In this document: one piece after another, positions 4,501-54,300 of the stretch
Layout of the letters: every line of letters begins with the position of its first letter
How positions within the stretch are numbered: the first letter of the stretch is position 1
DNA from: an uncultured Candidatus Cloacimonadota bacterium
GTDB lineage: Bacteria > Cloacimonadota > Cloacimonadia > Cloacimonadales > TCS61
Reading direction: 5' to 3'
Length of the DNA: 64,000 bases
NCBI GenBank assembly: GCA_964604155.1
Contig: CAZRXY010000096.1
Location: 5,592 to 69,591 of the forward strand
Position numbers and translations under genes: made by a program
Notes under the pieces: model-generated
The model's input: only the letters and a program-made list of their open reading frames with translations
The model's database searches: none
Told to the model about the DNA's origin: nothing

Positions 4501-6936
4501 ATGCAATTGCACAGAAAGCTCGGCTGATTCACCCGGATCTAAAACTGAGCCCACATTATACAAGGTGTATTCATCATGAGAGAGTCTGGGGGCTTGCACT
4601 ATCAGCTCCAGAATATCATAAAATTCTTGTCCGTTTGAGGAGATAATCACATTTAATATGATGCTAAAATTATCAATAATCGCAGGATCAAAGTAGATGA
4701 TAAAGCTTTCCTCACCTGGGATTTCTGCTCCTGGTGCGATATTTTGATAGGAAACCTCATCCAGAATGATATTTACCAGCGGTTGAGAACATTCTATGGA
4801 AGCTGTGATATCAGAGGCAGTTTGAGAGCCGGAATTGTTTATGAGGATATCGAGCTCAATCGTCTCCCCATTATTAATAATAGAATTATTATTACCGGAA
4901 GAATTCCCCAGATTATCATCATCAATGATATAATTACGCGGGTTAAGCTGCACATCTTGAGCAGAAATATTAAATGTGTCCTGGAACGACCTGTAATCCT
5001 GGGCTGTGACTGTGATAGTTACTTCTCCACTTTGATTATTATCAAGTGGCAGCCAGATTTGTCCTTCTGTATCAGTGTATCCGGTAGCAAAAATATCATC
5101 ATCACCCATAAGAATTGTCACCCAGGCATCTTCAACAGGGAAACCCTGAGCGTCTAAGACGGAAACCGGCATATTGAGAGTGCCCAAACCAACCTCATTG
5201 GGATACATCACATTAAGCTCCTGAGGAAAGCCGGTATAAAGCGTAACGCTTGGATCACCCATAAGGTTGTTCCAGTGAGAAAAAATATTTACCTGATTAT
5301 TTGGATTTTGGGGATAATTAAGGAAAAGTTTATATTTTCCATTCACTAAAGCTCCACCGGCGGAGAAGATATCCAGATTAAAAAGTGCTTCGTAGATACC
5401 AGCCGTAACGCAATTATTAAAGCAGGTATGAGTGCCGGAAGTAGCAGTTCCCACCGCAGCAATGGCACCTTTGGGGTTTGATGAAGTCCCCGCACGGGCA
5501 AAAACTTCACTAGTGGCAGTACCGGCAAAATTTCCGGTACTGCAGGTGAGTATAGTTACAAATGGCAACATCCAGCCATTATATAGATTATTAATATTAG
5601 TGATGCCAAATCCACTCATCCCAATATAGCCGCGATAACAGAAATGCAGGGTACCGGCATTGATTGCAGAGCTCATCTGAGAAGCAAAACTCCCAGAGAA
5701 AATCTCATTATAAGAGAACTGAGGATTATAATCCTGGGATAATTCCTGAACGTAACGACAGGTAGAAATGGTCGAAGGTCCCGAAGAAGATGGGTCACCC
5801 ACGAGAGTGATATTTTCAAGCCAGTTTTCGTTAACTGTATAGGGAGATTTTTCATAATTGATAGATTTTGCAATAAGGGTCTGCAATTCGGTTATCGTGC
5901 CGTAGGGCATTCTGCCCAAGAATACATCTGCCAGAACATCACCACCGGCAAGCTGGCTGTAAGGCTGGTCACCTTCGCCATTATACCAGCTCCAGGTCTC
6001 TATCCAGGTGGGAATATTATAGCTGCCTCCAACATCGCCGGCTAAAATCACGTATTCAGGTCTGTTCAGCCAGGTATTATAGGCATTTTGTATATAGTTC
6101 TTTATGGCGGTATTTGTGCTGCCGGTTTCGGCAAGACTGGCAGTGTGAATTTCAAAGCCGCGTTCGTGCTTCCAGTCCGTGAGATAAGCCAGATTAGCAG
6201 CAACCTGCGTATTTGCCGGATGAATCACCAGAATACAGGGTTGCTGAAATTCATCGCGGGAGGCAGTGAGCTCATAATTAATGATGTGAGCTTTATAAAA
6301 GGGCAAAAACGCCTTCGAGATATTGGCGTGGGAGATTAGTTCATTAGCAGCAGTTTGACGAGACATAGATATTTGAATAGAAAATTCCTCCGTGATAATA
6401 AGCTTTTTCGTCACTGGATCATACCGGAATGGACACACAGTAACAGGCACTATCCTGATATCTCTCATAATGGCGGGTTCACCAATAAATACCTGCGTCT
6501 CGGGGAAGATGCTGCCGGATCTGTAATATTCTTCATTCTTGGTAAAAATATCGCGATACGGTTCACTTTCTATCTGCAATTCCTGACGCGGATATATCTC
6601 CACATCACTGATAGCAGAGAATTCCGAAGCAGAAAAATTTAGGTGGGGCGTACCCTGGGGAGAAATCGCCACTAAAGTGGTGAAAACCGGAAGGTCAGGC
6701 AGCCCGATTTGCAAGAGGTCTCCCTCCTGAGGATGAGTAATATGCAGATACTCATTTCCTTCTTTTTGCAGAACTTCCAGATCATAGCCGTCAAGCTTGA
6801 ATTCCAGTTCTGTATTGCTTCGATCGGAAGCAGGACAATAAAAGAGCTTAGTTTCATGATCAGCAAGATTTATCCAAGCTGCATCTAAGCTGAAGATAAG
6901 CAGGATGATACTCAATAGGCATAAAGATTTTTTCAC
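1567..6936 (-). CDS. Giant secreted gingipain-like (peptidase C25 family) protein with C-terminal dockerin-like module (C25-A)
   Basis: GTG start at 6936 preceded by GGAGG, and an N-terminal signal peptide (KKSLCLLSIILLIFSLDA). C25 core motifs are colinear with RgpB: YVILAGDVGG, LPFVTILTCSTGNF (Cys motif), GDPSVTLYTGFP. The C-terminus is DVNESSVVDAFDAAIILQYFVG...GDVDGNGNMEAYDASLIVQYIVG (two dockerin-like segments). No NYPNPFNP tail. Confidence 0.8.
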   Translation of the reverse strand: MKKSLCLLSIILLIFSLDAAWINLADHETKLFYCPASDRSNTELEFKLDGYDLEVLQKEGNEYLHITHPQEGDLLQIGLPDLPVFTTLVAISPQGTPHLNFSASEFSAISDVEIYPRQELQIESEPYRDIFTKNEEYYRSGSIFPETQVFIGEPAIMRDIRIVPVTVCPFRYDPVTKKLIITEEFSIQISMSRQTAANELISHANISKAFLPFYKAHIINYELTASRDEFQQPCILVIHPANTQVAANLAYLTDWKHERGFEIHTASLAETGSTNTAIKNYIQNAYNTWLNRPEYVILAGDVGGSYNIPTWIETWSWYNGEGDQPYSQLAGGDVLADVFLGRMPYGTITELQTLIAKSINYEKSPYTVNENWLENITLVGDPSSSGPSTISTCRYVQELSQDYNPQFSYNEIFSGSFASQMSSAINAGTLHFCYRGYIGMSGFGITNINNLYNGWMLPFVTILTCSTGNFAGTATSEVFARAGTSSNPKGAIAAVGTATSGTHTCFNNCVTAGIYEALFNLDIFSAGGALVNGKYKLFLNYPQNPNNQVNIFSHWNNLMGDPSVTLYTGFPQELNVMYPNEVGLGTLNMPVSVLDAQGFPVEDAWVTILMGDDDIFATGYTDTEGQIWLPLDNNQSGEVTITVTAQDYRSFQDTFNISAQDVQLNPRNYIIDDDNLGNSSGNNNSIINNGETIELDILINNSGSQTASDITASIECSQPLVNIILDEVSYQNIAPGAEIPGEESFIIYFDPAIIDNFSIILNVIISSNGQEFYDILELIVQAPRLSHDEYTLYNVGSVLDPGESAELSVQLHNLGHTDSGILQALLSTANPFLQIDNASAEFANIAPGSYGDNSQNRWAVSLNSTAIPGTMIPFDILLTNDEGFNQTVHFSIDVGTVTVNDPLGPDAYGYLCYDEEDTDYLQAPTYDWIEINPSLGGNGSAVGISTNSDNCEIADINFPPGFTFNFYGQNYSMFTVATAGWIAPGGTQNKSFMNWHLPDVLGPSPMIAAFWDDIYNGSSGGIYTYYDPSMHYFIIEWDHFQNEVGAAEETFQIVLYDANFYPTSTMDSMIKIQYKVFNNVNQGSYRANHGQYCTVGLEDPSGLIGLEYTFNNSYPTAARPITNQSAILFTTMPIPPDGAYLTLGSIILDDENGNGQADYGESIDFDLVLSNIGSDVAGNVTVLVESSDPWITLTSNFSSYPDIPAGNMAANLTPFHLTVDNNAPDGHLAPFTINISCNDGEWQLLTQIVLNAPDLGFLDYMVNDGVDNILDPGETADVLVNFLNNGGAPVYNAQITLSTNDPYLTINNDVTMPGLIPGGNTASGIFSFSAAINSPAGHAATINWSLAAGQNYSAEGSFSFVISQIPVLIDEDFSGTFPPDGWFVSGQNWGSNNSSNAGGSAPEARFNWSPSVTGTQRLVCGPFSTSGSSELDLSFRQNVNHFSGTYSLLVETSSNGSTWQTAASYQPQNQGATLSSVNISNSDVGSPNFYFAFTFSGNSYNINYWYIDNVLIEGVSMEPLGYVSGNVIINGPGNVEDVSISIANQIVHPNIYGEYSVILAPGIYTLTATLAGFDDFVVENLQVIETQITQQNIVLGYIPSPENLTVSAQENGILLEWELSPEETRRLSREIDYFNIYCAFNNGNPVLAGDSVELSYLHEPYLPGEYSYYVTAFYTESGETLPSNTASTWYDGEIHFADVNESSVVDAFDAAIILQYFVGLDPIPDIDPRPWEDWRFYLGDVDGNGNMEAYDASLIVQYIVGIIDHFPCEPRQVPGRIISSPISIETHKK

Positions 6937-6956: not shown

Positions 6957-9900
6957 TTATTTTATTAAAAGCATTTTTCGTTTGGCAAGATAATCATCTG
7001 CAATACGGCAGGTATAGAAATAGATACCGCTGGCAAAACCATCCGCATTCCAGATAAGATAGTGATTACCCGCATCATAAATGGTATCTGTGAGTTTTTC
7101 CACAATCTGTCCTCTGATATTATAGATTCTTATCTCCACTGATGTATTATCTTCTTTCACACTGAAGGCAATATTCGTCTGAGGGTTAAAAGGATTGGGA
7201 TAATTACCCCTGAGCTCATTGACCATTATTATATCATTATCACCGGTAGTCACGGCACCAAAATCATAAGTGAGCTCAGTCCAGTTATCATTGTTAATCT
7301 GGATCAGAAAATTTTCCAAACCCGGATCACTGCCCATGGTTACTGGGATTCTGGCAATTAGCTCATTATCTTCATAGGCATTTGCTCTGCAGCAGGAGAA
7401 CATCCAGCCTTCGGGATTCCAGGCAAATAGCACATCTTGAGGATCAATAATTTCCGGTTCACCCAGGCTTACACTTTCCAGACCGGAAGCCATGAGCGAT
7501 AGCGCATATATACCCTCTTCAGCAATGAGATCAAAATACAATATATCTCCCTCATTAGTGCAATCCATCCTGATAGCCGTATCAGGCAGATTAACAGGGT
7601 CTCCATTCTGAGCAGGAAATTCATCAATTATGCCCACCACATACTGCAGGATCAATGAACCGTCAAAGGCTTCAATAAAATTATTATTATCCACATCGGC
7701 AGCTTCAAGACGTTCAATTTCCCAGGGAACAGGATCAATTTCCGGTAAGGGGTCAAGACCTACTATATACTGTAATACGCATGAGGCATCGTAAGAATCA
7801 ACTATCTGCGAACTGTCCACATCACCATAAATAATCCCGGTACCAATACTTAGAGTTACTGGGATTATCAAGGTCTGATTGAGCGGGTCATTGGTATTAA
7901 AAATAAGATCACAGTGATAAACAGCAGCAGTCAATTCGTCTGTGGCAGCGGTTATAAGGAGATTTTGCTCATCATTCATCAATATCTCGCCATTTGTTTC
8001 AGATATTTGAAGCCAATCTACTACTTTGCGGATTCCAATTGCCAGACCCTCCTCCAGATAATCATCATCATAAACAATCTGAAGTGCATGAAAAGCATCT
8101 GCATCTTGAAGTCCTATTGTGCAGGTGTCCATATCTCCGCTGAGCGAGTTATACTGGAACTTGATCTCTCCGGTTTCATAGATGATCACTTCAAAATCAT
8201 AGGTACCATTATAGCTGCCAGGATAATGGATAACGTTATGAAACATCACTACGAGGTGATCAGAAAAATTTTGATAATAAACCGTGCCGCCGCCATTTCC
8301 ACCAATAGCAGGATAAAGGTCATCCCAGAACGGCATAATCGCAGCCCGCGGAGCATCCTCGTCCGGCAATGATGAATTCGACCAGGCAGTATTATCGGAA
8401 GCAAAACCTATCCAGCCATTGGCATTGATGATAAATTCATCATAATCCGTGCCATAATAATTAAAACTGAAGCCAATAGGCAATGGCGAAGTACCCTCAT
8501 CATTATGTGGAAATGATACCGCAGTGCCCTCGCCGGATATATCTATCCAGTCAAATTCAATGTCGCCCATGTCGTTGCTGTCCATCCACATATAGCCATA
8601 TCCATCAGGACCACCGCTATCTCGGCTGTCATGATAATTCTTTGTAATACTCCAAAGCAGATTCTCTTCCCCGGCATTAGATATATTTATAGTCGCATAT
8701 CCGGTCTCTCCCTCTTCCAAAATAATGCTCAGCTCTTCGATATCAAGCACCATCACTGCAGGATCCGGTATGCCTATCGCAGGAAATATTATGTAATCCA
8801 GCCAGGCACAATCAGAACCGCTGGAAACATAAACATCCTTCTCATATCGCCATAAAAGATTATGCTCTCCCTGCTCTACCATAAATCCCGCCTGCGCCCA
8901 GGGTATTTCCCCAGACCACGAACCCATTTCTACACCATCGATATAGAAGCGAAGAAAGTCGTAGCCAGCTTCTGAAGATACACGATACATAAAACTTATC
9001 TCACTATTAAATAGTACATTTATATTGATTGATAGAATGCTGTTCTGGCTGTTACCTATTGAACCAGATTTTGCACTGTAAGACCCTTCATAAGCCAGAG
9101 TATTAATTATCCAATCCGCATTGCCACTAAATTCCCAGTCAAAACTGGAAAAATCACCGGTTTCAAAATCTTCTACTATCAAACCTACTGATTCCGTTAT
9201 TTCTTCTGTAAATGAATAATTATCCGCATTGCAAATGAGAGTCAGATGCACCGGAGTGCCAATCTCGATATCTGTACCCACAATAACCGTAAAAACTCCG
9301 GTGGCATTGCCGTTTGCAGATATCAGACCAAGATTACATACCGGATTTTCAATAACAAGCTCAGGATTAGCAGATATAAACTGGAGACTGGCAAAGGGTG
9401 AGTCGCTTTGACCAATATTAAGAATCTCAATTGTGACTTCAGCAATTTCTCCAGGATCCAGAATGCCGTCATTATCTCCATTATAGCTGTCATCTATAGA
9501 AATCCCGCCATAAATCAGATCAGGTGCGTTCACATTGATCTGAAAGTATGATACCCATTCAAACTGATCATCACCACTTACTGTCAAAGTGAAATTTACC
9601 TGATGCTGGTCTGGTATTGCATCGCTGATCATAAAACATACCGCTGCCGGGAGATCAATGATAGTCTCAGCAGTGATCGTGCCAATTTCCTCTTCCGCAT
9701 CAATAAATGTGATATATTCATCTTGAGTGCTTAGTGTGAGACTTGTGTTCTCTGCATCAAAATTACCCACATTATTAAGCTGCAAATCTAATGAAATAGT
9801 CTCTCCATAATCCGGCAGACCATCACCATTACCAGCAGTATCATCCAGAGTATGCCCTTGATAAACCACGTATGGCTGATCAGATACTACTATGATCATA

Positions 9901-18466: not shown

Positions 18467-19417
18467 ATGCAGAAGATTTTAGTAACTGGCGGAGTTGGTC
18501 AGATCGGCTCGGAACTGGTGATGGAATTACGAAGAGTATATGGAGCAGCAAATGTGATCTGTGGCGTGAATAGAACCAAGCCGCAGGGAGAACTTAAGGA
18601 ATCGGGTCCCTGTGAAATTGTAGATTGCACGAGGGCTCAGCAGGTTGCCGAAATAGTCCGGAAATATAAAGTGGATACCATCTATCATCTGGCGGCAATA
18701 CTTTCAGCGGTAGCGGAAGCTCAGCCAAATCTTGCCTGGAATGTGAATATAAACGCTCTATACAACGTGCTGGAAGTTGCCAGAGAAGAAAGTTGTGCCG
18801 TTTTTACTCCAAGCTCCATTGGTGCTTTTGGCTCTTCCACCCCGCTTGACAACACACCTCAGGACACTATTCAGAGACCTTCCACGATGTATGGCGTCAC
18901 CAAGGTAGCTGGTGAATTATTGTGCGATTACTATTATAAACGCTTTGGCGTGGATACTCGCGGTGTACGCTATCCGGGCATTATTTCTAATGTCACACTT
19001 CCGGGTGGCGGGACTACAGATTATGCAGTAGAAATATATTATGAAGCGATAAGAAAGAAAAAATATACCTGTAATCTGCCGGCAGGCACTTTTTTGGATA
19101 TGATGTATATGCCCGATGCCCTTAAGGCAGCAATAGACCTGATGGAAGCAGACCCTTCCAGATTAGTGCACCGCAATGCCTTTAACGTAACAGCTATGAG
19201 TTTTGACCCCGAAATTATTGCAGCCGAGATCAAAAAACATATTCCGGATTTTATCATGGATTATAAGGTGGATAAGGTAAAAGAAGCTATTGCCAATAGT
19301 TGGCCCAATTCCATGGACGATAGTGCTGCCCGTGAAGAATGGGACTGGGAGCCGGAATATGATCTGGTATCAATGACAGAAGATATGCTCTCAGTTCTCA
19401 ATCAGAAACTAAAATAA
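18467..19417 (+). CDS. tdh: L-threonine 3-dehydrogenase, SDR/epimerase-type
   Basis: ILVTGGVGQIGSEL Rossmann motif, YGVTKVAGELLCDYYYKRFG (YxxxK), RYPGIISNVTLPGGGTTDYAVEIYY. Colinear with the animal/Flavobacterium-type TDH, and the partner kbl lies in the same operon. Confidence 0.9.
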   Translation: MQKILVTGGVGQIGSELVMELRRVYGAANVICGVNRTKPQGELKESGPCEIVDCTRAQQVAEIVRKYKVDTIYHLAAILSAVAEAQPNLAWNVNINALYNVLEVAREESCAVFTPSSIGAFGSSTPLDNTPQDTIQRPSTMYGVTKVAGELLCDYYYKRFGVDTRGVRYPGIISNVTLPGGGTTDYAVEIYYEAIRKKKYTCNLPAGTFLDMMYMPDALKAAIDLMEADPSRLVHRNAFNVTAMSFDPEIIAAEIKKHIPDFIMDYKVDKVKEAIANSWPNSMDDSAAREEWDWEPEYDLVSMTEDMLSVLNQKLK

Positions 19418-19807: not shown

Positions 19808-21034
19808 ATGGCTTTAGAAAAACTTAACAAAGCCTTGCAGCTTGAAATTGACGAATTATTTGAAAAAGGCACCGCAAAAGGTAAAGAGATGGTGATCACA
19901 GAAATCATCAAGCCGGCTGGAGACAAAGGGCCTCGCTACTTGATTGATGGATACGGTGATAAGCAATTTATAAAAATGAATGCTAATTCATATCTAGGCT
20001 TGAGTATGCATCCCGAGATAATAGCTGCTGAAGAAACTGCTGCCCACAAATATGGCGTCGGCCCCGGTGCTGTACGATTCATTAGTGGCACTCACTCACC
20101 ACATATCGAGCTCGAAGAGAAGCTGGCAGAATTTCATGATAGAGAAGCCGCCATGATATTCTCTTCTGCCTATGTTACTTCCTTGGGAGTGATATTTCCC
20201 CTTACAACCAAAGAGACCGTTTTAGTCTCTGATGAGCTTAATCATAACTGCATTATCCAGGCTATGAGATTATGCCGCCCGGCAGCAAAATTTATCTACA
20301 AGCATAATGATATGGAAGATCTCAGAGCTAAACTTGAAGAAGCTGCCGGCTTGGGGAAACGCTGCCTGGTTATCACTGACGGCATTTTCTCTATGAGAGG
20401 AGATCATTGCCCCTTTGATAAGCTTGTCCCGATCTGCCAGGAATTCCACGATAAATTTGAAGAAGGCGTTATCTCTATAGCAGATGATTCTCACGGCGTG
20501 GGTGCATTCGGTGATACCGGACGTGGCACAGAAGAATACACTGCCACCAAGGTAGATATCTTAATCGGCACTATGGGAAAAGCATATGGCGTTAATGGAG
20601 GTTATGTGGTTGCTTCCAAAACTGTCCTCGATTATTTGAGAGAAAAAGCTCCTATGTATATCTACAGTAATCCTATCACCTGCTCAGAAGCTGCCGCAGT
20701 GCTGAAAGTGCTGGAATTTGTGGATACACCCGCCGGCAGGAGCAGAATAGCTCACTTAGCAAAAATGACCAGAAAATTTGAAAAAGGACTGATTGATCTG
20801 GGGTATGAAACTATCCCCGGACCCCATCCTGTAGTCCCTCTTATGGTTCGTGATACCGCAAAAACTGCAGATATGGTGAAATATCTTACGGCAAATGGAG
20901 TTCTTGGTACTGGCTTGAATTTTCCAGTAGTACCCAAAGGTGACGAAGAGATTCGCTTCCAGGTTAATGGCGATCATACAGAAGCAGATATTGATGCAGT
21001 GCTGGCAATTCTTAAAAACTACAAAAATCAATAA
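19808..21034 (+). CDS. kbl: Glycine C-acetyltransferase (2-amino-3-ketobutyrate CoA ligase)
   Basis: Alpha-oxoamine synthase family (NSYLGLSMHPEIIAAEE, DDSHGVGAFGDTGRG, GTMGKAYG PLP-Lys). The kbl assignment is supported by tdh in the same operon. Confidence 0.87.
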   Translation: MALEKLNKALQLEIDELFEKGTAKGKEMVITEIIKPAGDKGPRYLIDGYGDKQFIKMNANSYLGLSMHPEIIAAEETAAHKYGVGPGAVRFISGTHSPHIELEEKLAEFHDREAAMIFSSAYVTSLGVIFPLTTKETVLVSDELNHNCIIQAMRLCRPAAKFIYKHNDMEDLRAKLEEAAGLGKRCLVITDGIFSMRGDHCPFDKLVPICQEFHDKFEEGVISIADDSHGVGAFGDTGRGTEEYTATKVDILIGTMGKAYGVNGGYVVASKTVLDYLREKAPMYIYSNPITCSEAAAVLKVLEFVDTPAGRSRIAHLAKMTRKFEKGLIDLGYETIPGPHPVVPLMVRDTAKTADMVKYLTANGVLGTGLNFPVVPKGDEEIRFQVNGDHTEADIDAVLAILKNYKNQ

Positions 21035-25023: not shown

Positions 25024-25248
25024 TCTATTCCTCAACTATATCTATTTTTTTTAGAAGCAAGTCTTATCTGACTGCCTGATTTGTAAAGCTATTAAAATAT
25101 GAATGCTGATTTGATGATAGTGATATTATTAATTTCAAGCCAGTTAGCATAGACCATAAAAAAAATCTGCTCGTAAACTAATCTCCTGCTCAAAGCCGGA
25201 TAACGCGCAAATAAGTGAAGTGTCTTCTCATACTCATAAAACATAAAT

Positions 25249-25285
25249 CCGTCTGCTCAATTCGGGCAGACGGCTTTGCTTTTCT
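25249..25285. terminator. Hairpin with T-tracts on both strands, downstream of the small Lys-rich ORF
   Basis: 8-bp stem ccgtctgc / gcagacgg (25249-25256 / 25266-25273). Followed by ctttgcttttctc on the + strand and atttatgttttat on the - strand. Confidence 0.4.
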
Positions 25286-25348
25286 CTAAATACTTGATAC
25301 TGCAGTATCGATCTTTCCCCTGCAGATTTCATAACACCAAGCTGATTA

Positions 25349-25444
25349 CTACTTCTTGGGGCTTTTCTTCTTCGGTGCAGGTTTTGTAGCCGGTGCTGAA
25401 GCTTTTGCTACGCCACCACTGGTCTTCTTTTTAGAATTTGCCAT
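25349..25444 (-). CDS. Unannotated small Lys/Ala/Pro-rich basic protein (31 aa)
   Basis: Below the ORF-track cutoff. The minus strand reads GGAGGAAAC-ATG GCA AAT TCT AAA AAG AAG..., giving MANSKKKTSGGVAKASAPATKPAPKKKSPKK*. Strong RBS, with a hairpin ~75 nt downstream. Confidence 0.5.
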   Translation of the reverse strand: MANSKKKTSGGVAKASAPATKPAPKKKSPKK

Positions 25445-26178
25445 GTTTCCTCCTTTATTATTTATAAAATAATTATAATTCAAATTCTGTCAATAAATAT
25501 CTTAAAATTTCTAATAAAAAAATTTCCTATATACGTTTTGTGATGGTAAATTAGAAAAACACCATGATATATAGGAATATATGATATTGGATATATTTTT
25601 ATTGTAATTTAACAAGATTTCGTAAATAACTGTTTTAGACTAATAGATATTTAACTACCATAAGATTATAATTATTGAGATATTAGAAATTTATAATCAA
25701 AATTTTCCCATCTCCATGTTTCGTAATGCAATCTTATAAATCAATATTTTCGTGTCATCTAACACTATAATATATAGTGAATTATACCGCACAAAATCTT
25801 TTTCAGCATTTCTGTGCCCGGAGAATTGTGTCCTATTCAACTATATGGGTTGAGCTTAGAGAATTAGATACAAGATTTGATAAAACCTCAACGTATCAAG
25901 AACCCGCAGTCAATGGGCGTAGTTTCTGGATCTACCGGTTCCTTAATTGCCGTGTGGCATCTGAACCACGCACATTTAAACTTGGGGTATGCAAAAAAAA
26001 ATAAATCTTTACAAGATTAAGCGGAAATCTACAATCTGTTCGTGTTTATCGGGTGGCAGAAGAATGAATTCTTCAGAGGGCATCCTGGAAGCAGGAGGAA
26101 AAACGCAGGTATGGATATGAACGGAACAGCGAGATTCTAAGAAAGGAGTTAATTAAAAAAGAATTAAAGCAGGGAGAT

Positions 26179-27352: not shown

Positions 27353-29422
27353 TCAGTCATTTCCCCTGAGTTTCTTTAAGATATCTTCCTGTATCTGGCT
27401 GGGAACTCTGTGATAATTGTGGAACTGCATATTATAATCTGCCTTGCCTTGAGTGAGTGATCTCAGATGAGTAACGTAACCAAAAATTTCTGCTAAAGGA
27501 ATATCTGCAACGATGCGCGTGAATTGTTCGTCAATCTCAGCCTCACTGATTATTCCCCTCCGCTGATTTATGCTGCCCATCACACTGGAACGGAATTCGT
27601 TGGGCGTTTCTATTTCTACCAGCATTACAGGCTCAAGCAGGTAAGGCTGAGCCTTGTTATACGCCTCCCTGAAAGCAAGTCTCGTAGCAATCTCAAATGC
27701 CATCTGCGATGAATCCACTTCATGATAGGCACCGTCATTGATTTCCATCTCCACCTGAACAACTGGGAATTCTGCCAGATGACCCTTACCAAGTGATCTC
27801 AAGAAACCTTTTTCACAGGCTGGAATATAGGTTGCAGGTATCACCCCGCCACTTATCTTGTCAATAAACCTGCTGTCCTCGTCATCAAGCGGTCTTATTG
27901 TTCCGGCTACACGGGCAAATTGTCCCCTGCCACCAGATTGTTTTTTGTGTGTATAATTAAATTTCACTTCTTTTGCTATGGATTCCCGATATGCCACCTG
28001 AGGTATTCCCGTGGTGAGCTTACAGCCATATTCACGCTTCATACGCTCCACATAAACGTCCAAATGTAATTCGCCCATCCCGGATATAATAGTCTCGCTG
28101 GACTCTTCATCAAAATATGTCTTAAAAGTGGAATCTTCTTTGCTGAACCTATTAAGAGCTTTTGCCATGTTATCAGCAGATTTTTTGTCAACAGGAGTGA
28201 GCGATATAGATAAAATAGGCTCCGGCACGTAAATATGCTTCATAGAAATATTTGCCCTGCCGGTAACAAAGGTGTCGCCCAGAGAACAATCTATGCCAAA
28301 AATAGCAGCTATATCACCGGCGGCTACTTCGTCGATATCTTCCATATTGCTGGCATGAAGTTTCACCAGCCTGCCTACTTTTATCTTCTTGCCTGTTGTC
28401 AGATTCACCAGATCTGTGCCTTTATTAATCCTCCCCTGATAAACTCTGAGATAGGTTAATTGACCATACTGCTGATTCTCGATTTTAAATGCCATTGCTA
28501 CTGCGTCCTTATCACGGTCACTAAAGATTTCTATCTCTCGGTCATGGTGGTCTACGTCATAGGCAATATTGATAATATCTGAGGGAGATGGCAAATATTC
28601 TACCACCGCATCTAATAAAGCACGAGTGCCTATGTTCTTGTAAGCAGACCCGGCAAAAACAGGCACTATCTGTCTGGCTATTGTAGCTTTGCGTATCGCC
28701 AAACGCAATAGAGATAAATCCAGATGCCCCTCAAGGTAGGATTCCATGAGAGTATCACAATACATAGAAACATTTTCAAAAAGCAAATCCCGATATCTTT
28801 CAGCTTCCGGCAACAATTCCTCCGGGATAGTCTCGCGATGGATCGTCTCGTTATTCACTCCACTGTAATAAAGTGCTTCCATAGTTACTAAATCGATTAT
28901 TCCCCGAAAATTCTCGCCACTGCCAATCGGCAATTGCACAAATACTGCATTCTTACCCAGCTTGTCACGTAATTGCGTAACTACTCTGTGGGCATCTGCC
29001 CCCGTCCTGTCCATTTTATTGATAAATGCCAGATTTGGCACTTTATGCCTGTGCATCTGACGCGCTACTGTGATGGTTTGTGATTGTACTCCCCCCACCC
29101 CGCAGAGTACCAGGATTGCTCCATCTAATACCCGTAAGGCGTTTTCTACTTCTATTGTGAAATCTACATGACCAGGCGTGTCGATTATATTGATCTCATG
29201 TTTCTTCCATGATACATTGGTGGTAGCAGATGATATTGTAATGCCACGCTCTTTCTCCAATTCCATGGAATCCATTGTGGCTCCCACTCCATCCTTACCG
29301 CGAACTTCATGTATTTTATGTATCCTGCCGGAATAATATAATATCCGCTCGGTAAGAGTCGTCTTCCCCGAATCTATATGAGCACTTATCCCTATGTTTC
29401 TTATCTTTGCTAATTCACTCAC
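27353..29422 (-). CDS. fusA: Elongation factor G family GTPase (standalone paralog, outside an rpsL-rpsG-fusA-tuf context)
   Basis: 689 aa. IRNIGISAHIDSGKTTLTERILYYSG, DTPGHVDFTIEV, FINKMDR, plus colinear domains II-V (MELHLDVYVERMKREYG, YHEVDSS). Confidence 0.92.
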   Translation of the reverse strand: MSELAKIRNIGISAHIDSGKTTLTERILYYSGRIHKIHEVRGKDGVGATMDSMELEKERGITISSATTNVSWKKHEINIIDTPGHVDFTIEVENALRVLDGAILVLCGVGGVQSQTITVARQMHRHKVPNLAFINKMDRTGADAHRVVTQLRDKLGKNAVFVQLPIGSGENFRGIIDLVTMEALYYSGVNNETIHRETIPEELLPEAERYRDLLFENVSMYCDTLMESYLEGHLDLSLLRLAIRKATIARQIVPVFAGSAYKNIGTRALLDAVVEYLPSPSDIINIAYDVDHHDREIEIFSDRDKDAVAMAFKIENQQYGQLTYLRVYQGRINKGTDLVNLTTGKKIKVGRLVKLHASNMEDIDEVAAGDIAAIFGIDCSLGDTFVTGRANISMKHIYVPEPILSISLTPVDKKSADNMAKALNRFSKEDSTFKTYFDEESSETIISGMGELHLDVYVERMKREYGCKLTTGIPQVAYRESIAKEVKFNYTHKKQSGGRGQFARVAGTIRPLDDEDSRFIDKISGGVIPATYIPACEKGFLRSLGKGHLAEFPVVQVEMEINDGAYHEVDSSQMAFEIATRLAFREAYNKAQPYLLEPVMLVEIETPNEFRSSVMGSINQRRGIISEAEIDEQFTRIVADIPLAEIFGYVTHLRSLTQGKADYNMQFHNYHRVPSQIQEDILKKLRGND

Positions 29423-29603
29423 TAATTTCTCCTGTTTCCTATTCCCTTCTTTGCTTTTAGCATCACTACTTATAAATTTAATGATTTTTTAAAGGAATGG
29501 CAAAACTTTTCGTCCACCGCTTATTGTCAACCAGAAGATAAAACCCGGCATACCACCGTAATTTATTTGTTAGTTTAAAATATTGAACTTATGAAGTTAT
29601 TGG

Positions 29604-29713
29604 TCGTCACCATTGCGAAGGTCTGGCGACCATTCGCAAAGTAACTTAGATTGAAGAAGTACCCTCATCCAAAACCTTGCGAATGGTCGAAAGATTTTTG
29701 CAATGGTTGACTT
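29604..29713. repeat. ~110-nt imperfect palindrome (four copies of a CGACCATTCGCAA-like 13-mer, two per arm)
   Basis: Left arm tcaccattgcgaagg (29607-21) and gcgaccattcgcaaag (29626-41). Right arm ccttgcgaatggtcga (29675-90) and ttttgcaatggttga (29696-710). The inner pair forms a perfect 13-bp match, and the outer pair 7 bp plus flanks. Confidence 0.7.
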
Positions 29714-29774
29714 TGACAACAATCTATATCTCACATAATATGAATCATTTAACAATACCAAAAATTATAAAAAA

Positions 29775-29814
29775 CAAGGGGATGCCTGGAAGATAAAACC
29801 CTCGCATCCCCTTG
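29775..29814. terminator. Strong hairpin with U-tracts on both strands, in a region with no annotated upstream gene
   Basis: 11-bp perfect stem caaggggatgc / gcatccccttg with an 18-nt loop. The minus strand continues TTTTTTATAATTTTT, and the plus strand continues aaatttttcttcttc. Confidence 0.5.
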
Positions 29815-29920
29815 AAATTTTTCTTCTTCTTTGCTCAATAACATCCTGCAAGAGTAATGGAACAATTCCGAATTTTGGATGTTGAATTTTGAATGAGTAG
29901 CCCCGTGCTTTAGTCGGGGA
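29775..29920 (-). repeat. Repeat family A, distal part (aligns with 47721-47830)
   Basis: The reverse complement (ccccgactaaagcacggggctactcattcaaaattcaacat...ttccattactcttgcaggatgtt...aagaagaagaaaaatttcaagggg) aligns with 47721-47830 at roughly 75-80% by eye, apart from an ~18-nt indel. Confidence 0.7.
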
Positions 29921-30067
29921 ATTTTATGCCCAGCATAAGCCCTCCCACCTCTTCTCTTATTCACCTCTTCTCCCGTCTTATCCCCGTTCACTTTCACTTA
30001 TACATCTCACTTCTCACACGCGAAGCAACACTTTCTCAATTTCAAAGAAATTCCCCAATCCCCAATC

Positions 30068-30104
30068 CCAAGTCCCGAGTTCCAAGTCCCGAGTTCCAAG
30101 TCCC
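30068..30104. repeat. Tandem 14-nt repeat (ccaagtcccgagtt x2.6), preceded by ccccaat x2
   Basis: Read directly: 30068-30081 and 30082-30095 are identical, with a partial third unit at 30096-30104. ccccaatccccaat lies at 30053-30066. Confidence 0.9.
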
Positions 30105-30255
30105 AATAATTTCACGAACCTATAAATTGCCTTATAGCTATATTATGATAACTATAATTAATTGATAAATAATAAAATAGTTTACTCAAAAATATAGTTA
30201 CCATAATGTTACCGGCTATTTATCTAATTTATAGTGGATTAAGTAGCATTCGTAA

Positions 30256-30553
30256 CATTTTTTAACGTTTTGAGATATGTAAACGCATTATTTTTATTTT
30301 TTTTTATCAATTTGCTGCACGTAATAACCTAAGCTTAATTTACTATTTTATATTTTATAACCAGACACAGTCCGCACCTCGTATCCTTCTCATTCTAACT
30401 TCCCCATAACATACATAATAACAGCATGCAACACTAAATAAACAAAGAGTGGCACCAAAGTGACATTGTATATAATTAATATACATAGCTTTAACCTCTG
30501 TTTGCCACACTTTTTCGTTTTTTGAGATATATTTATGCACTTTTTTGATTTTT
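30256..30553. repeat. Pair of ~45-nt direct repeats ~250 nt apart inside the 0.8-kb element
   Basis: acattttttaacgttttgagatatgtaaacgcattatttttatttt (30256-30300) versus acactttttcgttttttgagatatatttatgcacttttttgattttt (30508-30553). Confidence 0.6.
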
Positions 30554-30650
30554 GGCTATTGATTCATTCAATCCAAACCACTTGATGACTTATTTTTATA
30601 AACCGTACCGGTGTTGACTGCCAAAACTGTACCAATATAAAAAGCTATGC

Positions 30651-30687
30651 AGATGATCCCCGAGCTGAAGCTCGGAGCAATTCATTT
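30651..30687 (-). repeat. Repeat family A, proximal part (aligns with 47681-47718)
   Basis: agatgatccccgagctgaagctcggagcaattcatt versus the reverse complement of 47683-47718, agatgatcccggagctgaagctcggggcaattcatt (34/36). It contains the hairpin ccgagc-tgaa-gctcgg. Confidence 0.8.
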
Positions 30688-30790
30688 ATAAATAAAGAGA
30701 TAGGTGCCTTTTATTTAATGTTAACTGATATATGAGCTATATTTCTTGCCTATGCCTGCCGATTGAAGCATTTTGACGGGATGTTGCATT

Positions 30791-30890
30791 TTCCAAGGTA
30801 ATAGTTAAATTTACCTGGAGTAACCTGCGTAATTCCATTATTGCCAATGAGCTATCAGCCCGGTTAATTAGAAAATCGGGGATATGTCGG
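30791..30890 (+). repeat. Dispersed intergenic repeat family B, copy 2 (sense-upstream of etfA-queE)
   Basis: taaatttacctggagtaacctgcgtaattccattattgccaatgagctatcagcccggtta matches 63419-63481 at 52/63 positions. The tail ttaattagaaaatcggggatatgtcgg matches the reverse complement of the 18.1-kb copy. Confidence 0.75.
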
Positions 30891-30969
30891 CTGCTTAGAA
30901 AAACCTTGACTATTAAGCCAATAGGAAAGTCTTTATCCCTAGATTTATATAAAAATCAGGAGATACATA

Positions 30970-32151
30970 ATGATTGAAGTAATAGAACAGAGATGTGTTG
31001 GCTGCAAAGCCTGCCTGAAAGCCTGCGCCTATGGGGCAGTCACTATCATAGACAAACTGGCTGAGATCGATACCGATAAATGTGTGCTCTGTGGAGCCTG
31101 CGTAGATGCCTGCACCTTTGATGCCATCATGATCAGAAAGTATGGCCGCACCAATATTGACCGTTCTCAATACAAAGGAGTATGGGTATTCGCGGAGCAG
31201 CAAAGACAGCAATTAGCCCCGGTAGTCTTTGAATTATTGGGTAAAGGCAGAGAACTGGCAGATACTCGTGATACGCAGCTTACTGCTGTACTTATGGGCT
31301 TTCAGATAGAAAATCTGGCACAGGAATTGATTGAATCTGGTGCCGATCGCGTGATGGTTATTGACGATGAGATTCTGAAACACTTTATCGATAAGCCTTA
31401 TGCTTATGCCCTGGAGGTTCTGGCAAAAAAATATAAACCTGAGATTATACTCTCGGGTGCTTCCGTGATGGGCAGATCATTTATCCCCCGCGTGGCAGTA
31501 GGTTTGCATACGGGTCTCACAGCAGATTGCACAGGTCTGGAAATTGATTTTGCTACGGGTCTCCTCAAGCAGACAAGACCGGCTTTCGGTGGAAACATCA
31601 TGGCTACTATTATCACCCCGGATCACCTTCCGCAAATGGCTACCGTACGCCATAAAGTTATGGATGCATTGCCACGGGACGACAGTAGAAAAGGCGAAAT
31701 TATCAAAGAAGTGATTGATTTTTCCAATGTGAAAGCCTCATGCTTCTATCAGGAATTTATTAGCGATGATACCCAGGAGATCAATCTCACTGAAGCCAAT
31801 TTTGTGATATCAGGCGGTAGAGGTCTCAAAGCACCAGAAAATTTCAAGATGGTCTATGATTTAGCAAAAGCAATGGATGCCGCCGTTGCCGCTTCTCGTG
31901 CCGCAGTCGATGCCGGCTGGGTGCCTTATCCCCATCAGGTGGGGCAAACCGGGAAAACCATTAAACCTAAGGTCTATCTCGCTCTCGGAATCTCCGGGGC
32001 TATCCAGCACCTCGCAGGTATGCAAAGCTCAGATTATATTATCGCGGTAAACAAAGATCCTGATGCCCCGATATTTAAAGTGGCAGACCTCGGTATTGTG
32101 GGCGATATTTTTGAAATCGTCCCGCTGCTCACAAAAAAATTCGCGGGGTAG
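30970..32151 (+). CDS. etfA: Electron transfer flavoprotein alpha subunit with N-terminal 2x[4Fe-4S] ferredoxin domain
   Basis: N-terminus CVGCKACLKACAYGAV...CVLCGACVDACTFDAI (two CxxCxxCxxxC clusters). The ETF-alpha body follows, ending in the FAD-binding region SGGRGL...AASRAAVDAGW...QVGQTGKTIKPKVYLALGISGAIQHLAGM. Confidence 0.9.
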   Translation: MIEVIEQRCVGCKACLKACAYGAVTIIDKLAEIDTDKCVLCGACVDACTFDAIMIRKYGRTNIDRSQYKGVWVFAEQQRQQLAPVVFELLGKGRELADTRDTQLTAVLMGFQIENLAQELIESGADRVMVIDDEILKHFIDKPYAYALEVLAKKYKPEIILSGASVMGRSFIPRVAVGLHTGLTADCTGLEIDFATGLLKQTRPAFGGNIMATIITPDHLPQMATVRHKVMDALPRDDSRKGEIIKEVIDFSNVKASCFYQEFISDDTQEINLTEANFVISGGRGLKAPENFKMVYDLAKAMDAAVAASRAAVDAGWVPYPHQVGQTGKTIKPKVYLALGISGAIQHLAGMQSSDYIIAVNKDPDAPIFKVADLGIVGDIFEIVPLLTKKFAG

Positions 32152-34536: not shown

Positions 34537-34613
34537 TGGTGTCCCCGACGCGATTCGAACGCACGGCCTTTTGATCCGGAGTCAAACGCTCTATCCAACT
34601 GAGCTACGGGGAC
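34537..34613 (-). tRNA. tRNA-Arg (anticodon CCG), CCA encoded
   Basis: The minus strand reads GTCCCCG TA GCTC AGTTGGATA GAGC G TTTGA CTCCGGA TCAAA AGGCC GTGCG TTCGAAT CGCGT CGGGGAC A CCA. It has a 7-bp acceptor stem, a canonical D loop, TTCGAAT T-loop, and the anticodon loop CT-CCG-GA. Confidence 0.93.
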
Positions 34614-47469: not shown

Positions 47470-47680
47470 TTGCTTGTGGTTGTATGAATTGAGGGGCTTG
47501 GTGACATTAATGGTAGCTAATTGGTAATATTGTAGTTACAAAGGCTATCCCGAGCAAATTTTAAAAAAAAATGCACTGAAAAATGTCTCATCTCGTGAAA
47601 ATTCCTAATTCGGCAGGCATGAACCAGAGAGATAGCACATATACCAGCTAACATACAAAGTCACTTAACTCTATATTTAT

Positions 47681-47830
47681 GAATGAATTGCCCCGAGCTT
47701 CAGCTCCGGGATCATCTAACCCCAAGCTAAAAGCACGGGGCTATTCATTCAACATTCAACATTATTCCATCGCCCCTGCCGGATGTTTTTTAAGCTAAGA
47801 ATAAGAAAAATTTCGGGGGTATACCAGTCT
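47681..47830 (+). repeat. Repeat family A, compact copy (70-nt TIR-bounded unit 47681-47750 plus ~80-nt conserved flank), sense-upstream of the REC-kinase gene
   Basis: The termini gaatgaattgccccg (47681-95) and cggggctattcattc (47736-50) are 14/15 inverted repeats. The interior and flank align with 30651-30687 and 29775-29920 in reverse complement. Confidence 0.75.
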
Positions 47831-47916
47831 GAGTCAAATAAAAGGTTGACTATATTCAGGTGGTTAGGTGTTTGGGTAAGAATAGTTAGTGTGGGCAAAG
47901 GAGTAGCAGGAAGCGT

Positions 47917-51393: not shown

Positions 51394-54300
51394 CTACTTC
51401 AGCAGCAGAGCTTTGGAAGTATCAGTTTTATCAAGTGAGATTAGCCTGAAGTAGTATATTCCGCTTGGCTGCGGTTTCCCATAATTATCTTTACTATCCC
51501 AGGTTATGGAGTGCATCCCCAAAGGATATCTGCAATTGGTAAGATTTCTTACCATTTGTCCCTTGAGATTATAAACATCGATTCTAATATTCTGCTCTTT
51601 ACTGACTGAGAAATTGAGATTGGTAATGGGATTGAATGGATTAGGATAATTACCCAGAAGCTCAGTAACCGCAGGAGTAATTTGCGGCTCGTCATTTTCT
51701 GTTTCTTCCACAAATACTGTCCAGACGGTGCTTATACTGTAATCTTCATCAGATACAATCGATCTGATTGTGAAGGTGCCATGATCATTGAATTGATATT
51801 GCAGAAGGGCAGAATTTTCGTCCAAAGTGACGCCATTGATCCTCCAGAGGTAATCTAATTCACTATCAATATCGGTGACTTCTACCTGAAAATGCACGGT
51901 GGAATACTGGAGAGTGTCAAATTCGGTTTCCACGGGCTCAAAAGCGATCAGAACGGGTGGGTCATTAACGGGGAGGACTGTAACTATCATGTCATCTGCG
52001 GGGCGTCCCTGCTGATCATCGACCGTGATAGTGATTGTTTCGCTTCCAAACCAATCCGGCGTAGCTGAGAAGGTAATAGTGAGACCGGTGATTTCTGCTG
52101 TAATTTCAGTATTCCCGCTAAGACTTATCGTCAGAGGGTGTCCTTCTATATCGTAGCAGTATAGACTGGCATCAAAAATCAGAGTGCCGTCTTCATTGAA
52201 GAAGATTTCATCTGGCAGATTAATTTCCGGCAGGTCGTTTACGGGATTAACCAGCAGCGTGAAGGTATCGCTGATTTGAGCTCTTGCCTGTCCATCGCTT
52301 ACTGTGATAGAAATCTCAGTTTCTCCGAACCAGTTCTCTACGGGAGAAATTGTAGCGAGAGAGCCATTTAATTCTATCAGAACATGGGCCGGGACAAAAT
52401 CTACATCATAGCTGAGAGCGTCTCCATCTACGTCATCATAGTAGTCATCCAGATTTATAGTAACCGGATCAAAATCTTCATCTACGATGAAAGGATCTGG
52501 GATCTGCACAACAATATGAGGGGGATCATTAACGGGTATCACGATGATATCCATATCATCGGAGGCAAAACCGCCATCGAGGTCGCTTACATTTACAGTA
52601 ATCGAAGCAGTGCCATTCCAGTCCTGGGTAGCAGTGAAGATGGCATTCAAGCCAATTATCTGGGCATAGAGATTTTCGGTTGTATCTATGCTGATGATAA
52701 ACTGGTTACTATCTATATCTGAGATATAGGCAGAAAAATCTACCAGAAGGCTGGTATCTTCGAGGAATGTGAATTGTCCGGGCAAGTCAATTTGAGGTGG
52801 ATCATTAACCGGATTGACTATCACCAGGATATTATCGGAGACAGGTGGTGCCACGCCATCCGAAACCGCAAGAGTGATGTATTCATTCCCAAACCAGTCT
52901 GGCGGTGCTGAGAGAGTGGCGATCATGCCATCGAATTGGACATCGATCATATTTGCATTGATCAATAGAGGAATGAGCGGATCGCCTTCCACGTCATTAG
53001 CGTAAAGCTGGAGATCCAATTCCAGTGAAGAATCTTCATCAAAGCTGATACTGGCGGGTAGTTCAAAAACAGGCGGATCGTTTACTGGAGTAACAATCAC
53101 GAGGATATCATCTGAGGCTGTGGCTCTGCCCTGCTGGTCGCTGACGGTTATTGTGATAAGCTCTTCTCCAAACCAGTCGGGCGTGGCAGATAAATTAGCA
53201 ATCATTGCGTTAAAGCCTACAATAATTTCGCTATTTCCCGTAACCGAGAAGACAAGTTCATCCCCATCTACATCGAAGACATAATTACTAAGATTTATTG
53301 AAGTAGAAGAATCTTCAGCAAAAGTGACAGATTCTGGTAAATCAATAACCGGTGCGTCATTAACGGGAGCTATTGCAACCACGATATAACCGCTGATACT
53401 TAAGCGAGAGACACGGTCGAAAGCAGTGACCATGATAGAAGTATTGCCATACCAATCCATTACAGAACCAATGTCCAGGATGTTATCGGCAAGATCTACT
53501 GCAATTTCATCCGCATAGTAATCTATCTCATAACTCAGAATATCTCCATCAACATCTGCGAAGTAATCATCGAGATCGAGAGAAAAAGCTGCAAAATCTT
53601 CATCAAGATTATAAACCGGCAGCGGATTTTCTAGGTGTGGGGGATCATTGACCGGCGTTACCGTGATCTCAATGTCATGTGTGACAGTTATGCTTTCCAG
53701 ATCTGTAGCAGAGAGAGTGACCACTTCATAACCATACCAGTTTTCAGGAGCAGTTAGAAGAACGGAAGTGCCATTGAATTGGAAAGTGATGTACTCATTA
53801 CCTGCAACATCATAAGATAATTCATCGCCATAAACCAGGTCTGGATCAGCAAAAATAGAGCCAGTACTGAATTGGTAGCTTTCATCTTCCTCAAATATGA
53901 GCTGAGTGATGGGGTTATCAATGACAAATGGTGGATCGTTAACAGGTGTTACAGTAATCAAAGTCTGGCCTGATGCGGATAATCTTGTGCGAGAATCATG
54001 CACCGTGAAAGTGATATATTCTGAACCGTTATAATTTTCCGGTGCTGAGAAGGTTACAAGGAATTCATCAATTTCGATAAAAATAAAATTAGCAGGAGAG
54101 GCAGTGATGGAAAGATTATCACCGTCAACATCATATATATAAGGTTCAAAATCAACTGTGTGAACAGTATCTTCATCGAAGGGAATTTCCTCAGGTAGAT
54201 CTATCTGGGGCGCATCATTTTGAGGAAGCACTATAATATTGATCTCAGCAAAGGCCGGTTGATTTTCCAAATTATCATAAGCAGATATTTGTATAAGAGA

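Follow-up and report, generated by a model that had tools for sequence, protein, structure and literature searches.

Nested gene-less inverted-repeat elements at a fixed distance from -35 boxes in an uncultured Cloacimonadota bacterium: a probable family of promoter-targeting MITEs, one with a 731-nt non-coding insert

Insertion in a set orientation and at a constant distance upstream of -35 boxes has so far been documented for transposase-encoding ISLre2, for the TnGBS conjugative elements and for some ISKra4 elements (PMC3942029). ISLre2 and TnGBS (p-MULT 3) and the ISKra4 group (p-MULT 4) insert upstream of sigma-A -35 boxes at a distance of 14-18 bp (mode 16); the asymmetry of their inverted repeats is held to set the orientation, and the insertions are accompanied by 8-9-bp duplications (Guerillot et al. 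2014, PMC3942029). The published p-MULT elements are 1.1-52 kb long, encode a transposase and are bounded by 18-39-bp repeats ending in a terminal cytosine, given as 5'-G...C-3' in Table S1 (PMC3942029). The present analysis concerns a 64,000-nucleotide (nt) stretch of DNA, the window, from an uncultured Cloacimonadota bacterium near 'Ca. Stygibacter', and in it the non-coding spacer at 29.4-31.0 kb between a divergent ETF/rSAM operon and the gene of an EF-G paralog. The repeats in this spacer are real, gene-less transposon relics. The spacer is probably a nest of non-autonomous, promoter-targeting miniature inverted-repeat transposable elements (MITEs) of a single family, to which a 731-nt segment, the cargo, would have been added by a later insertion.

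Bacterial MITEs such as Correia/NEMIS, RUP and Nezha are short intergenic sequences that encode no protein, have inverted repeats at their ends, occur in many copies, can fold into long hairpins and are often nested. The elements described here are likewise short, non-coding, inverted-repeat-bounded, multi-copy, intergenic, hairpin-forming and nested. In the case of Correia elements, the duplicated target is TA, and promoters may be present within the element. To our knowledge, no fixed distance or orientation to -35 boxes has been reported for Correia/NEMIS, RUP or Nezha, and a limited literature search turned up no gene-less MITE family described as targeting promoters. The elements are best filed as a new Cloacimonadota MITE family with ISLre2/ISKra4-like promoter-proximal oriented insertion, different termini and one 731-nt non-coding insert.

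Four copies of a repeat module are present in the window: c18 (18091-18388, + strand), c30-1 (29801-30893, - strand), c47 (47506-47827, + strand) and c63 (63281-63504, - strand, 224 nt). A reading made earlier from the letters alone (the sequence-only reading) had described a 70-nt unit at 47.7 kb, whose sub-terminal segments recur in reverse orientation near 30 kb. This was borne out, the segments being split there by 731 nt: 30651-30711 and 47657-47717 are complementary at 89% over 61 nt, as are 29879-29911 and 47730-47762 at 94% over 33 nt. Homology past one terminus was found as well (29801-29841 vs 47787-47827, 78%), and the similarity of the copies extends further than had been noted, since 30651-30857 matches 47511-47717 at 74% over 211 nt (E = 2e-34); in a sensitive self-comparison of the window, 29801-29911 matches 47730-47827 with E = 2e-12. 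Because homology spans both sides of the cargo, a non-coding module of about 330 nt is common to c47 and c30-1, and their alignment reaches z = 32 once the cargo is removed. The element c30-1 is 1093 nt long, comprising 362 nt of module, with homology to 47506-47827 on both sides, and the 731-nt cargo. The degenerate third copy reported near 18.3 kb is real and exceeds the size given for it (18093-18225 and 18302-18395 match the module), and the fourth copy, c63, had been overlooked; c18 and c63 are more diverged.

The module ends in inverted repeats, 5'-CAGGCATCCCCC ... GGGGGTATGCCTG-3', and the ends of the family as a whole are 13-19-nt inverted repeats of the form 5'-CAGGCATCCCCC(G) ... (C)GGGGGRATGCCWG-3'. 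At the limits of homology the sequence is CAGGCATCCCCC(G)TTTTT on the left and AAATTTC(G)GGGGRATGCCWG on the right; the two ends are therefore asymmetric in their sub-terminal parts, with GTTTTT following the left end and AAATTTC preceding the right end. The inverted termini coincide with the homology boundaries both in the window and in the relatives L008, L011, L033 and L040 (labels of this form denote the loci used for comparison). Ends of the CAGGCATCCCCC / GGGGGATGCCTG type were found in c18, c63, c30-1, L008, L011 and L033 and in c30-2, a further element of the spacer described below. The left and right ends are CAGCCGACATATCCCC (30893-30878, - strand) and AATTTCAAGGGGATGCGAG (29819-29801, - strand) in c30-1, CAGACATCCCCCG and TTTCAGGTGTATGAAAG in c18, and CAGGACTCGCTCTG and GAGGGGTATGCCTG in c63; c47 has the right end TTTCGGGGGTATACCAG (47811-47827) and a degenerate left end. 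The elements measure 171-362 nt (c30-1 taken without its cargo) and contain no credible open reading frames (ORFs). Their interiors are mostly palindromic and differ between subfamilies.

In all seven elements that abut host DNA (7/7), the right terminus is followed by a TTGAC[AT] hexamer at a distance of 14, 15, 16, 17, 17, 18 or 18 nt, whereas the background chance of the hexamer in that interval is about 0.002 per element. The right ends (AAATTTC-GGGGGATGCC) are all turned toward the promoter and the gene. In the window, the right end of c30-2 lies 14 nt from the -35 box of the EF-G-paralog promoter, TTGACA-N15-AAAGTTTTG (29501..29530, - strand), that of c18 16 nt from 18405-18410, that of c63 17 nt from 63258-63263, upstream of a 3944-aa gene, and that of c47 18 nt from the TTGACT at 47846-47851. 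These host promoters are of the local type TTGACA-N14-(T)AAAGTTTTG. On the other side of the spacer, the divergent promoter of the ETF/rSAM operon, TTGACT-N14-AAAGTCTTT (30906..30934, + strand), lies 12 nt beyond the left end of c30-1, and its GTCAAGG.TTTTCT is conserved in L010. The observation that every copy lies sense-upstream of the next gene was confirmed, and this placement is accounted for by insertion in one orientation at 14-18 nt upstream of the -35 boxes of the host. The genes downstream of the elements are unrelated, encoding an EF-G paralog, a tdh-like epimerase, a REC-kinase and a giant surface protein. As a separate observation on the promoters of this lineage (18405-18433, 29501-29530 and 30906-30934 in the window; also L008, L009, L010 and L033), the -10 element appears nearer to the Bacteroidetes-type TAnnTTTG than to TATAAT.

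The fifth element of the window, c30-2 (29545..29788, - strand), is a 244-nt palindromic MITE that carries the family ends, CAGGCATCCCCTTG on the left and TTACGGTGGTATGCCGG on the right, around an unrelated interior, and its hairpin folds with z = -4.1. It is flanked by a perfect 11-13-nt direct repeat, GTTTTATCTTC (p ~ 0.003 in a 9-mer test). One copy, GGTTTTATCTTC (29789..29800, - strand), stands between c30-1 and c30-2 and perfectly repeats 29534-29544; the other, GTTTTATCTTC (29534..29544, - strand), is the duplicated target. The length of the repeat is 9 nt if the right inverted repeat takes in GGGT and 11-13 nt otherwise. The order on the minus strand is thus the ETF promoter, c30-1 (30893-29801), GGTTTTATCTTC, c30-2 (29788-29545), GTTTTATCTTC, TGG and the TTGACA promoter of the EF-G paralog. 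At c18 the flanking repeat is near-perfect, with AGATTTAGT and AGATTGAGT agreeing at 8/9 positions (p ~ 0.02), while the flanking repeats of c63 and c30-1 agree at 7/9 each, which is non-significant (p ~ 0.22 and 0.11).

The rSAM-ETF/EF-G synteny is kept in two relatives, in which the spacer measures 297 nt (L010) and 281 nt (L033). Five relatives (L009, L010, L011, L025 and L033) have a TTGACA promoter before the EF-G gene with no element end preceding it, and the promoters of L009, L010 and L033 can be clearly aligned with that of the window. The EF-G-paralog promoter is conserved in relatives whether the element is present or not, and the elements seem not to supply the promoter, since relatives that lack the element have the same TTGACA promoters. 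L008 carries a different, 171-nt element, the ends of which are complementary at 16/19 positions, and its right end is 15 nt from the same EF-G -35 box, as compared to 14 nt in the window; one promoter has thus been hit in parallel in two lineages. Elements with the same ends and other interiors are also found in L011 (318 nt), L033 (312 nt) and L040 (upstream of tdh), and L043 has a palindrome related to c30-2 at 2816-3002. c47 is lineage-specific: L042 and L043 do not have it in their orthologous REC-kinase spacers, where the TTGACT box is kept.

A proposed origin of the spacer can be described as follows. The elements would be mobilised by a DDE-type transposase acting in trans, which would recognise two slightly different ends and integrate about 16 nt (14-18) upstream of a sigma-70-type -35 hexamer, with the right end toward the promoter, and some 9-13 bp of the target would be duplicated on insertion. 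We infer that such targeting is the cause of the constant spacing. Two insertions, c30-1 and c30-2, may have hit one target before the EF-G-paralog promoter, and serial insertions of this kind could have grown an ancestral ETF/EF-G spacer of about 290 nt to 1.55 kb. The 731-nt cargo would have arrived later at the apex of a palindrome, in c30-1 only.

The likeness to ISLre2, TnGBS and ISKra4 lies in the right inverted repeat, which faces the promoter 14-18 nt from the -35 box, in an orientation that tracks the asymmetry of the two inverted repeats, and in the AT-rich target. The duplications of 9-13 nt are compatible with the 8-9 bp of those elements. In contrast to them, the elements described here are gene-less and 170-360 nt long, and their termini are 5'-CAG...CTG-3' on repeats of 13-19 nt, whereas the repeats of Table S1 all have C at the 3' terminus. 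Cloacimonadota is not among the host phyla listed for p-MULT elements (PMC3942029). No candidate protein for a p-MULT (Mutator-like DDE) transposase was found in the window or the fetched loci, and membership of ISLre2/ISKra4 is not established because the termini differ and no transposase was found. A search of viral contigs with the right-end pattern gave one chance match within a GC-rich coding region. The termini presumably recall those of the IS4/IS10 or ISAs1 type, with 5'-C(A/T)G followed by ATCCCC as at IS10 ends, and we take the duplication of ~9 bp or more to recall the same type; both are leads only, and we know of no promoter targeting in the IS4/IS10 or ISAs1 families. It is also conceivable, if unlikely, that the elements represent an independent promoter-targeting lineage (5'-CAG...CTG-3', unlike the Mutator-like ISLre2/TnGBS/ISKra4 elements) that has colonised the -50 regions of many Cloacimonadota promoters, in which the B-box (the conserved core of the module, see below) may be a mobile second promoter and the cargo a MITE-borne non-coding payload.

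Several results weigh against reading the elements as promoter-targeting MITEs. For c47 only the right end was found, with no recognisable left end. A clear target duplication is seen at one element only (c30-2), and no flanking duplication was found at L008, at L033 or around the cargo. At the tdh promoter of L042 and L043, AATTTTGGGGATTATATCCATCAG, which lies 14 nt from the -35 box, may be the decayed remnant of a right end; the site is therefore not a clean empty site, and the end motif may instead be a promoter-associated cis element. Neither the window nor the fetched relative loci yielded a transposase with matching ends, and the DDE_Tnp_1_6/DUF772 insertion sequence (IS) of L012, considered as the autonomous partner, was rejected since its ends are unrelated. 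The B-box pattern had no match in genome and metagenome contig collections, which lack this population; this null result is uninformative because the pattern sits in seven contigs of the population that is lacking there. Lastly, the sample is small, the family being described from nine elements in ~200 kb, five of them in the window and four in ~140 kb of relatives.

If the end motif were a cis element, GGGGGATGCC, at about -52 to -70, would be a transcription-factor site and the 'elements' would be duplicated upstream regions. The fixed position and orientation of the motif relative to the -35 box at seven promoters in four genomes is what such a module would show, and the possible decayed motif at the tdh promoter of L042/L043 and the conservation of the B-box far above its surroundings agree with it. 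However, the 13-nt motif recurs in inverted form 170-1090 nt upstream, exactly at the ends of homology, the interiors are unrelated and have the ends alone in common, and the orthologous promoters of five relatives lack the motif. With the perfect duplication around c30-2 and the unrelated genes downstream also standing against it, a cis-regulatory module appears quite unlikely, and insertion of MITEs is preferred.

The B-box is the best-conserved part of the module, a 33-nt core (TAGCTCATTGGCAATAATGGAATTACGCAGGTT in c30-1, 30822..30854, - strand) with further copies at 18126-18158 (+), 47514-47546 (+) and 63436-63468 (-). The box is TAGCTCATTGGTAATAAAGGAATTACACAGGCT, 22 positions are invariant in the alignment, and it occurs four times in the window compared with 0.00 times expected by chance. 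Such strong conservation suggests some function, which may be a binding site for a transposase or a host factor, or a gene-facing promoter. The last possibility relates to a suggestion of the sequence-only reading, by which the repeats would be mobile promoter or non-coding RNA cassettes, the B-box acting as promoter and the module or the cargo being transcribed as a functional RNA. The B-box, ATTACA-N14-TAAATTTAA, does resemble the local TTGACA-N14-TAAAGTTTTG, all copies point to the downstream gene, and a sigma-70 scan flags one copy (TACACA-18-TAAAAT, 9/12); but the E. coli-type scan does not rise above shuffle expectation, and the B-boxes of c47, c63 and c30 remain unflagged (1/4 flagged). 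As to a functional RNA, Rfam gave nothing credible for 29400-31000 even at E <= 10, the cargo folds no better than its shuffles on either strand (z = -0.6 and -1.1), and a comparison of c47 with c30 reveals no compensatory changes in the two halves of the hairpin. Therefore the RNA cassette was not upheld, and the combined proposal of a mobile promoter or RNA cassette is improbable. A tRNA-derived B-box was considered and rejected: TAGCTCATTGG is D-arm-like, but its spacing to the 'anticodon-like' CTCCGG is wrong, and ARAGORN and Rfam (at the gathering threshold, over the whole window) call the tRNA-Arg at 34537-34613 alone. Some modules contain a AATAGCCAC...GTGG hairpin (CCACGGGATTCACTTGTGG followed by CTATTTTTAT), at 18204-18222 (-) in the window and also in c63 and L033, which has the look of an intrinsic terminator for the strand opposing the downstream gene.

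In c47 the 70-nt unit (47681-47750) is intact, and its termini, GAATGAATTGCCCCG and CGGGGCTATTCATTC, are a 14/15 inverted pair as had been claimed; its status as a mobile unit did not stand, since it is an internal palindrome of an element of ~220-360 nt. When single-stranded, these 70 nt form a single imperfect hairpin of -21.9 kcal/mol (z = -8.2, with 0/200 shuffles as good). Because this hairpin is continuous, the unit represents the central palindrome of the B-box subfamily (c18, c47, c63 and c30-1), and is neither a pair of independent hairpins nor a mobile unit in its own right. In c30-1, the left half of the palindrome, AAATGAATTGCTCCGAGCTTCAGCTCGGGGATCATCT (30651..30687, - strand), falls within the 89% match to 47657-47717, and the right half, CCCCGACTAAAGCACGGGGCTACTCATTC (29891..29919, - strand), within the 94% match to 47730-47762. 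The right half is followed by an array of the heptamers ATTCAAA/ATTCAAC (29870-29894, - strand), and c18 has a segment like this right half (H2-like) together with the heptamers. A GCTATT.TCATTCAAAATTCAACATTCA motif next to the palindrome is also present in the relative L040.

The cargo (29920..30650, - strand) occupies the apex of the palindrome. It is non-coding and largely made up of tandem arrays (7/14 nt), a tract rich in purines and an AT-rich core, with a pair of weak 125-nt direct repeats, and this style recurs in other long spacers of the clade. The 14-nt tandem repeat described earlier is real (30054-30104, 3.7 copies); the direct repeats described with it exist too, but are weak, with 61% identity over 125 nt between 30188-30312 and 30440-30564. 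The earlier statement that there is no credible ORF also held, the longest ORFs of the spacer being 79 aa, in the cargo, and 82 aa, straddling one edge (29749-29997); the latter had no Pfam match. A search for a decayed gene was null against NCBIfam for 8 of the 11 stop-to-stop pieces of at least 30 aa, and null for the list of ORFs down to 20 aa. The cargo showed no significant similarity to the other elements, the relatives or plasmid and phage collections. Most likely, it is inert DNA.

The sequence-only reading had taken the repeats for MITE-like elements in an internal deletion series. The first part agrees with the non-coding, inverted-repeat-bounded elements found; by the second, the 1.09-kb c30-1 would be ancestral and c47 derived from it by internal loss of 731 nt. 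The cargo is unlike a clean transposon insertion, because it lacks a target-site duplication and its terminal inverted repeat is weak, at 9-11 nt (CTGCATAGC / GCTTATGCTG), and this is consistent with a deletion series. So are the CAT microhomology at the junctions, GATCAT|CTGCAT...GGGCAT|AAAATT, and an instability of the junction in the population, where one contig lacks 21 nt. Against this, the distant copy c18 aligns over the junction with no trace of cargo. The junction reads GGGGATCATCT / cargo / CCCCGAC in c30 and GGGATCATCTAACCCCAAGC in c47; in c18, CTAAACCCGAACTAAAA aligns with CTAACCCCAAGCTAAAA of c47 (z = 5-6) and CTAA-ACCCG is contiguous. Since this outgroup copy keeps the halves of the palindrome contiguous, parsimony favours insertion in c30-1 over deletion in c47, and we infer the direction of the event accordingly. 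Cargo-like sequence is also lacking in c63 and in the elements of relatives, and in c47 the halves form one continuous 70-nt palindrome, which is the expected ancestral state. A deletion series is therefore unlikely, and a later insertion into c30-1 is preferred.

Other sources of the cargo were considered. If it is read as one more MITE of this family, its ends, CTGCATAGC... / ...GGGCTTATGCTG, resemble the family ends only loosely and have no duplication, and its weak internal similarities (z <= 4.5) are AT-rich alignments. As an IS200/IS605-derived element, it has no target duplication, no protein remnant, no RNA family and a single copy, and 7 nt from one of its ends there is a small hairpin, TTATGC-TGG-GCATAA. 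It is very unlikely that the palindromes are REP/BIME-like and moved by a RAYT (IS200-like), or that the cargo belongs to an integron attC or a group II intron of class IIC. GC-rich hairpins are indeed abundant in the elements of this AT-rich genome, the cargo lies at a hairpin apex, and the heptamer ATTCAAC fits the inverse core RYYYAAC of attC sites. However, terminal inverted repeats with target duplication are foreign to REPs, and no RAYT gene is present in the window. The integron cassette was rejected, since the nearby tyrosine recombinase is XerD (311 bits) and scores 126 for integron-integrase compared with a cut-off of 265 bits; the RYYYAAC-like heptamers lie on one side of the palindrome only. 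The IIC intron was rejected as well, with no Rfam signal and no GUGYG 5' end.

The same 29.4-31.0 kb spacer occurs in independent assemblies of the metagenomic population, with 98-99.9% identity. No presence/absence polymorphism of the elements was seen within the population, as the elements are present in all spanning contigs. Contigs of other assemblies end near the B-box (~18122 and ~30799), at the cargo edge (~30642, 9 nt inside), inside the cargo (two, ~30431) and in the palindrome of c30-2 (~29608). The ends at or near the B-box suggest that it is a high-copy repeat in the genome, and assembly breaks at the B-box and the cargo edge are expected for repeats. The contig that lacks 21 nt, ML8_10000328 of JGI (L001), is without GCAGATGATCCCCGAGCTGAA (30649-30669), which spans the junction of palindrome and cargo; this gap is either a population variant or an artefact of assembly at the hairpin. 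Taken with the contig break at the cargo edge, it hints at a boundary, of a repeat or of a polymorphism, at this junction.

A MITE family of this kind in an uncultured phylum would show that the promoter-targeting strategy is more widespread, and also that it can load promoter-proximal DNA with repeats while the promoters are left intact. The elements explain assembly breaks before genes in this organism and some of its spacers of 1-1.5 kb. In a lineage without experimental promoter data, their ends may serve as a ready marker of promoter positions.

Short arrays of units repeated in tandem every 7 or 9 nt occur just upstream of promoters throughout the clade, at 29870-29894, 29988-30017 and 30052-30106 in the window, at ~2790-2840 in L010, 9750-9830 in L043 and 9820-9860 in L042, and in upstream regions of L025, L011 and L040. 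Their units include GAATTTT, TCACTTC, TCCCCAA, CCCAAGTCCCGAGT, ATGGACAnn, CGACTCA and TCTCCCG, and the copy number of TCCCCAA varies between assemblies of the same population. We take the tandem heptamers of the cargo and neighbouring spacers, including TCCCCAA, to recall the STRR arrays of cyanobacteria; unlike those, the arrays here are short (2-8 copies), have many units, belong to another phylum and show no link to the MITEs. In L040, a non-coding segment of ~500 nt (17019-17517, -) is bounded by ~30-nt inverted repeats of CGAAATC-type units and adjoins GCTATTATCATTCAAAATTCAACATTCA, the motif that follows the palindrome in the modules of the window.

Repeats are also found around EF-G paralogs elsewhere. 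In L012, the complete Cloacimonadales chromosome OY762964.1, the EF-G paralog lies between two inverted copies of the IS mentioned above, at 7997-9475 (-) and 12258-13736 (+), which encodes a 492-aa DDE_Tnp_1_6/DUF772 transposase and has the ends AGAGTTATAGCTGGCTATAACTCTT; this pair looks like a composite transposon. In L014 (Desulfosarcina alkanivorans), at least five palindromic, AATTTTGAATT-rich units are found in 22 kb around a deltaproteobacterial EF-G paralog (6415-6555, 7438-7545, 13100-13300, 18887-18975 and 20334-20444), and one of them is followed by CTCAATCCCCCAATCCCTCAATTCCCG, in a style that matches the heptamers and the CCCCAAT run of the window.

A second long and very AT-rich spacer of the window (25036-26178, 1.1 kb) has no visible MITE ends, and one pipeline calls a gene in it, a 44-aa lysine-rich ORF (~25311-25445, -). 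The window further contains giant ORFs at 1567-6936 (1789 aa), 6957-11936 (1659 aa) and 51394-63228 (3944 aa). The last of these is built of internal repeats, which have a period of ~276-339 nt, and its product is probably a surface adhesin-like protein. Since its -35 box is ~30 nt from the annotated start codon, the true start of this gene may be further downstream.

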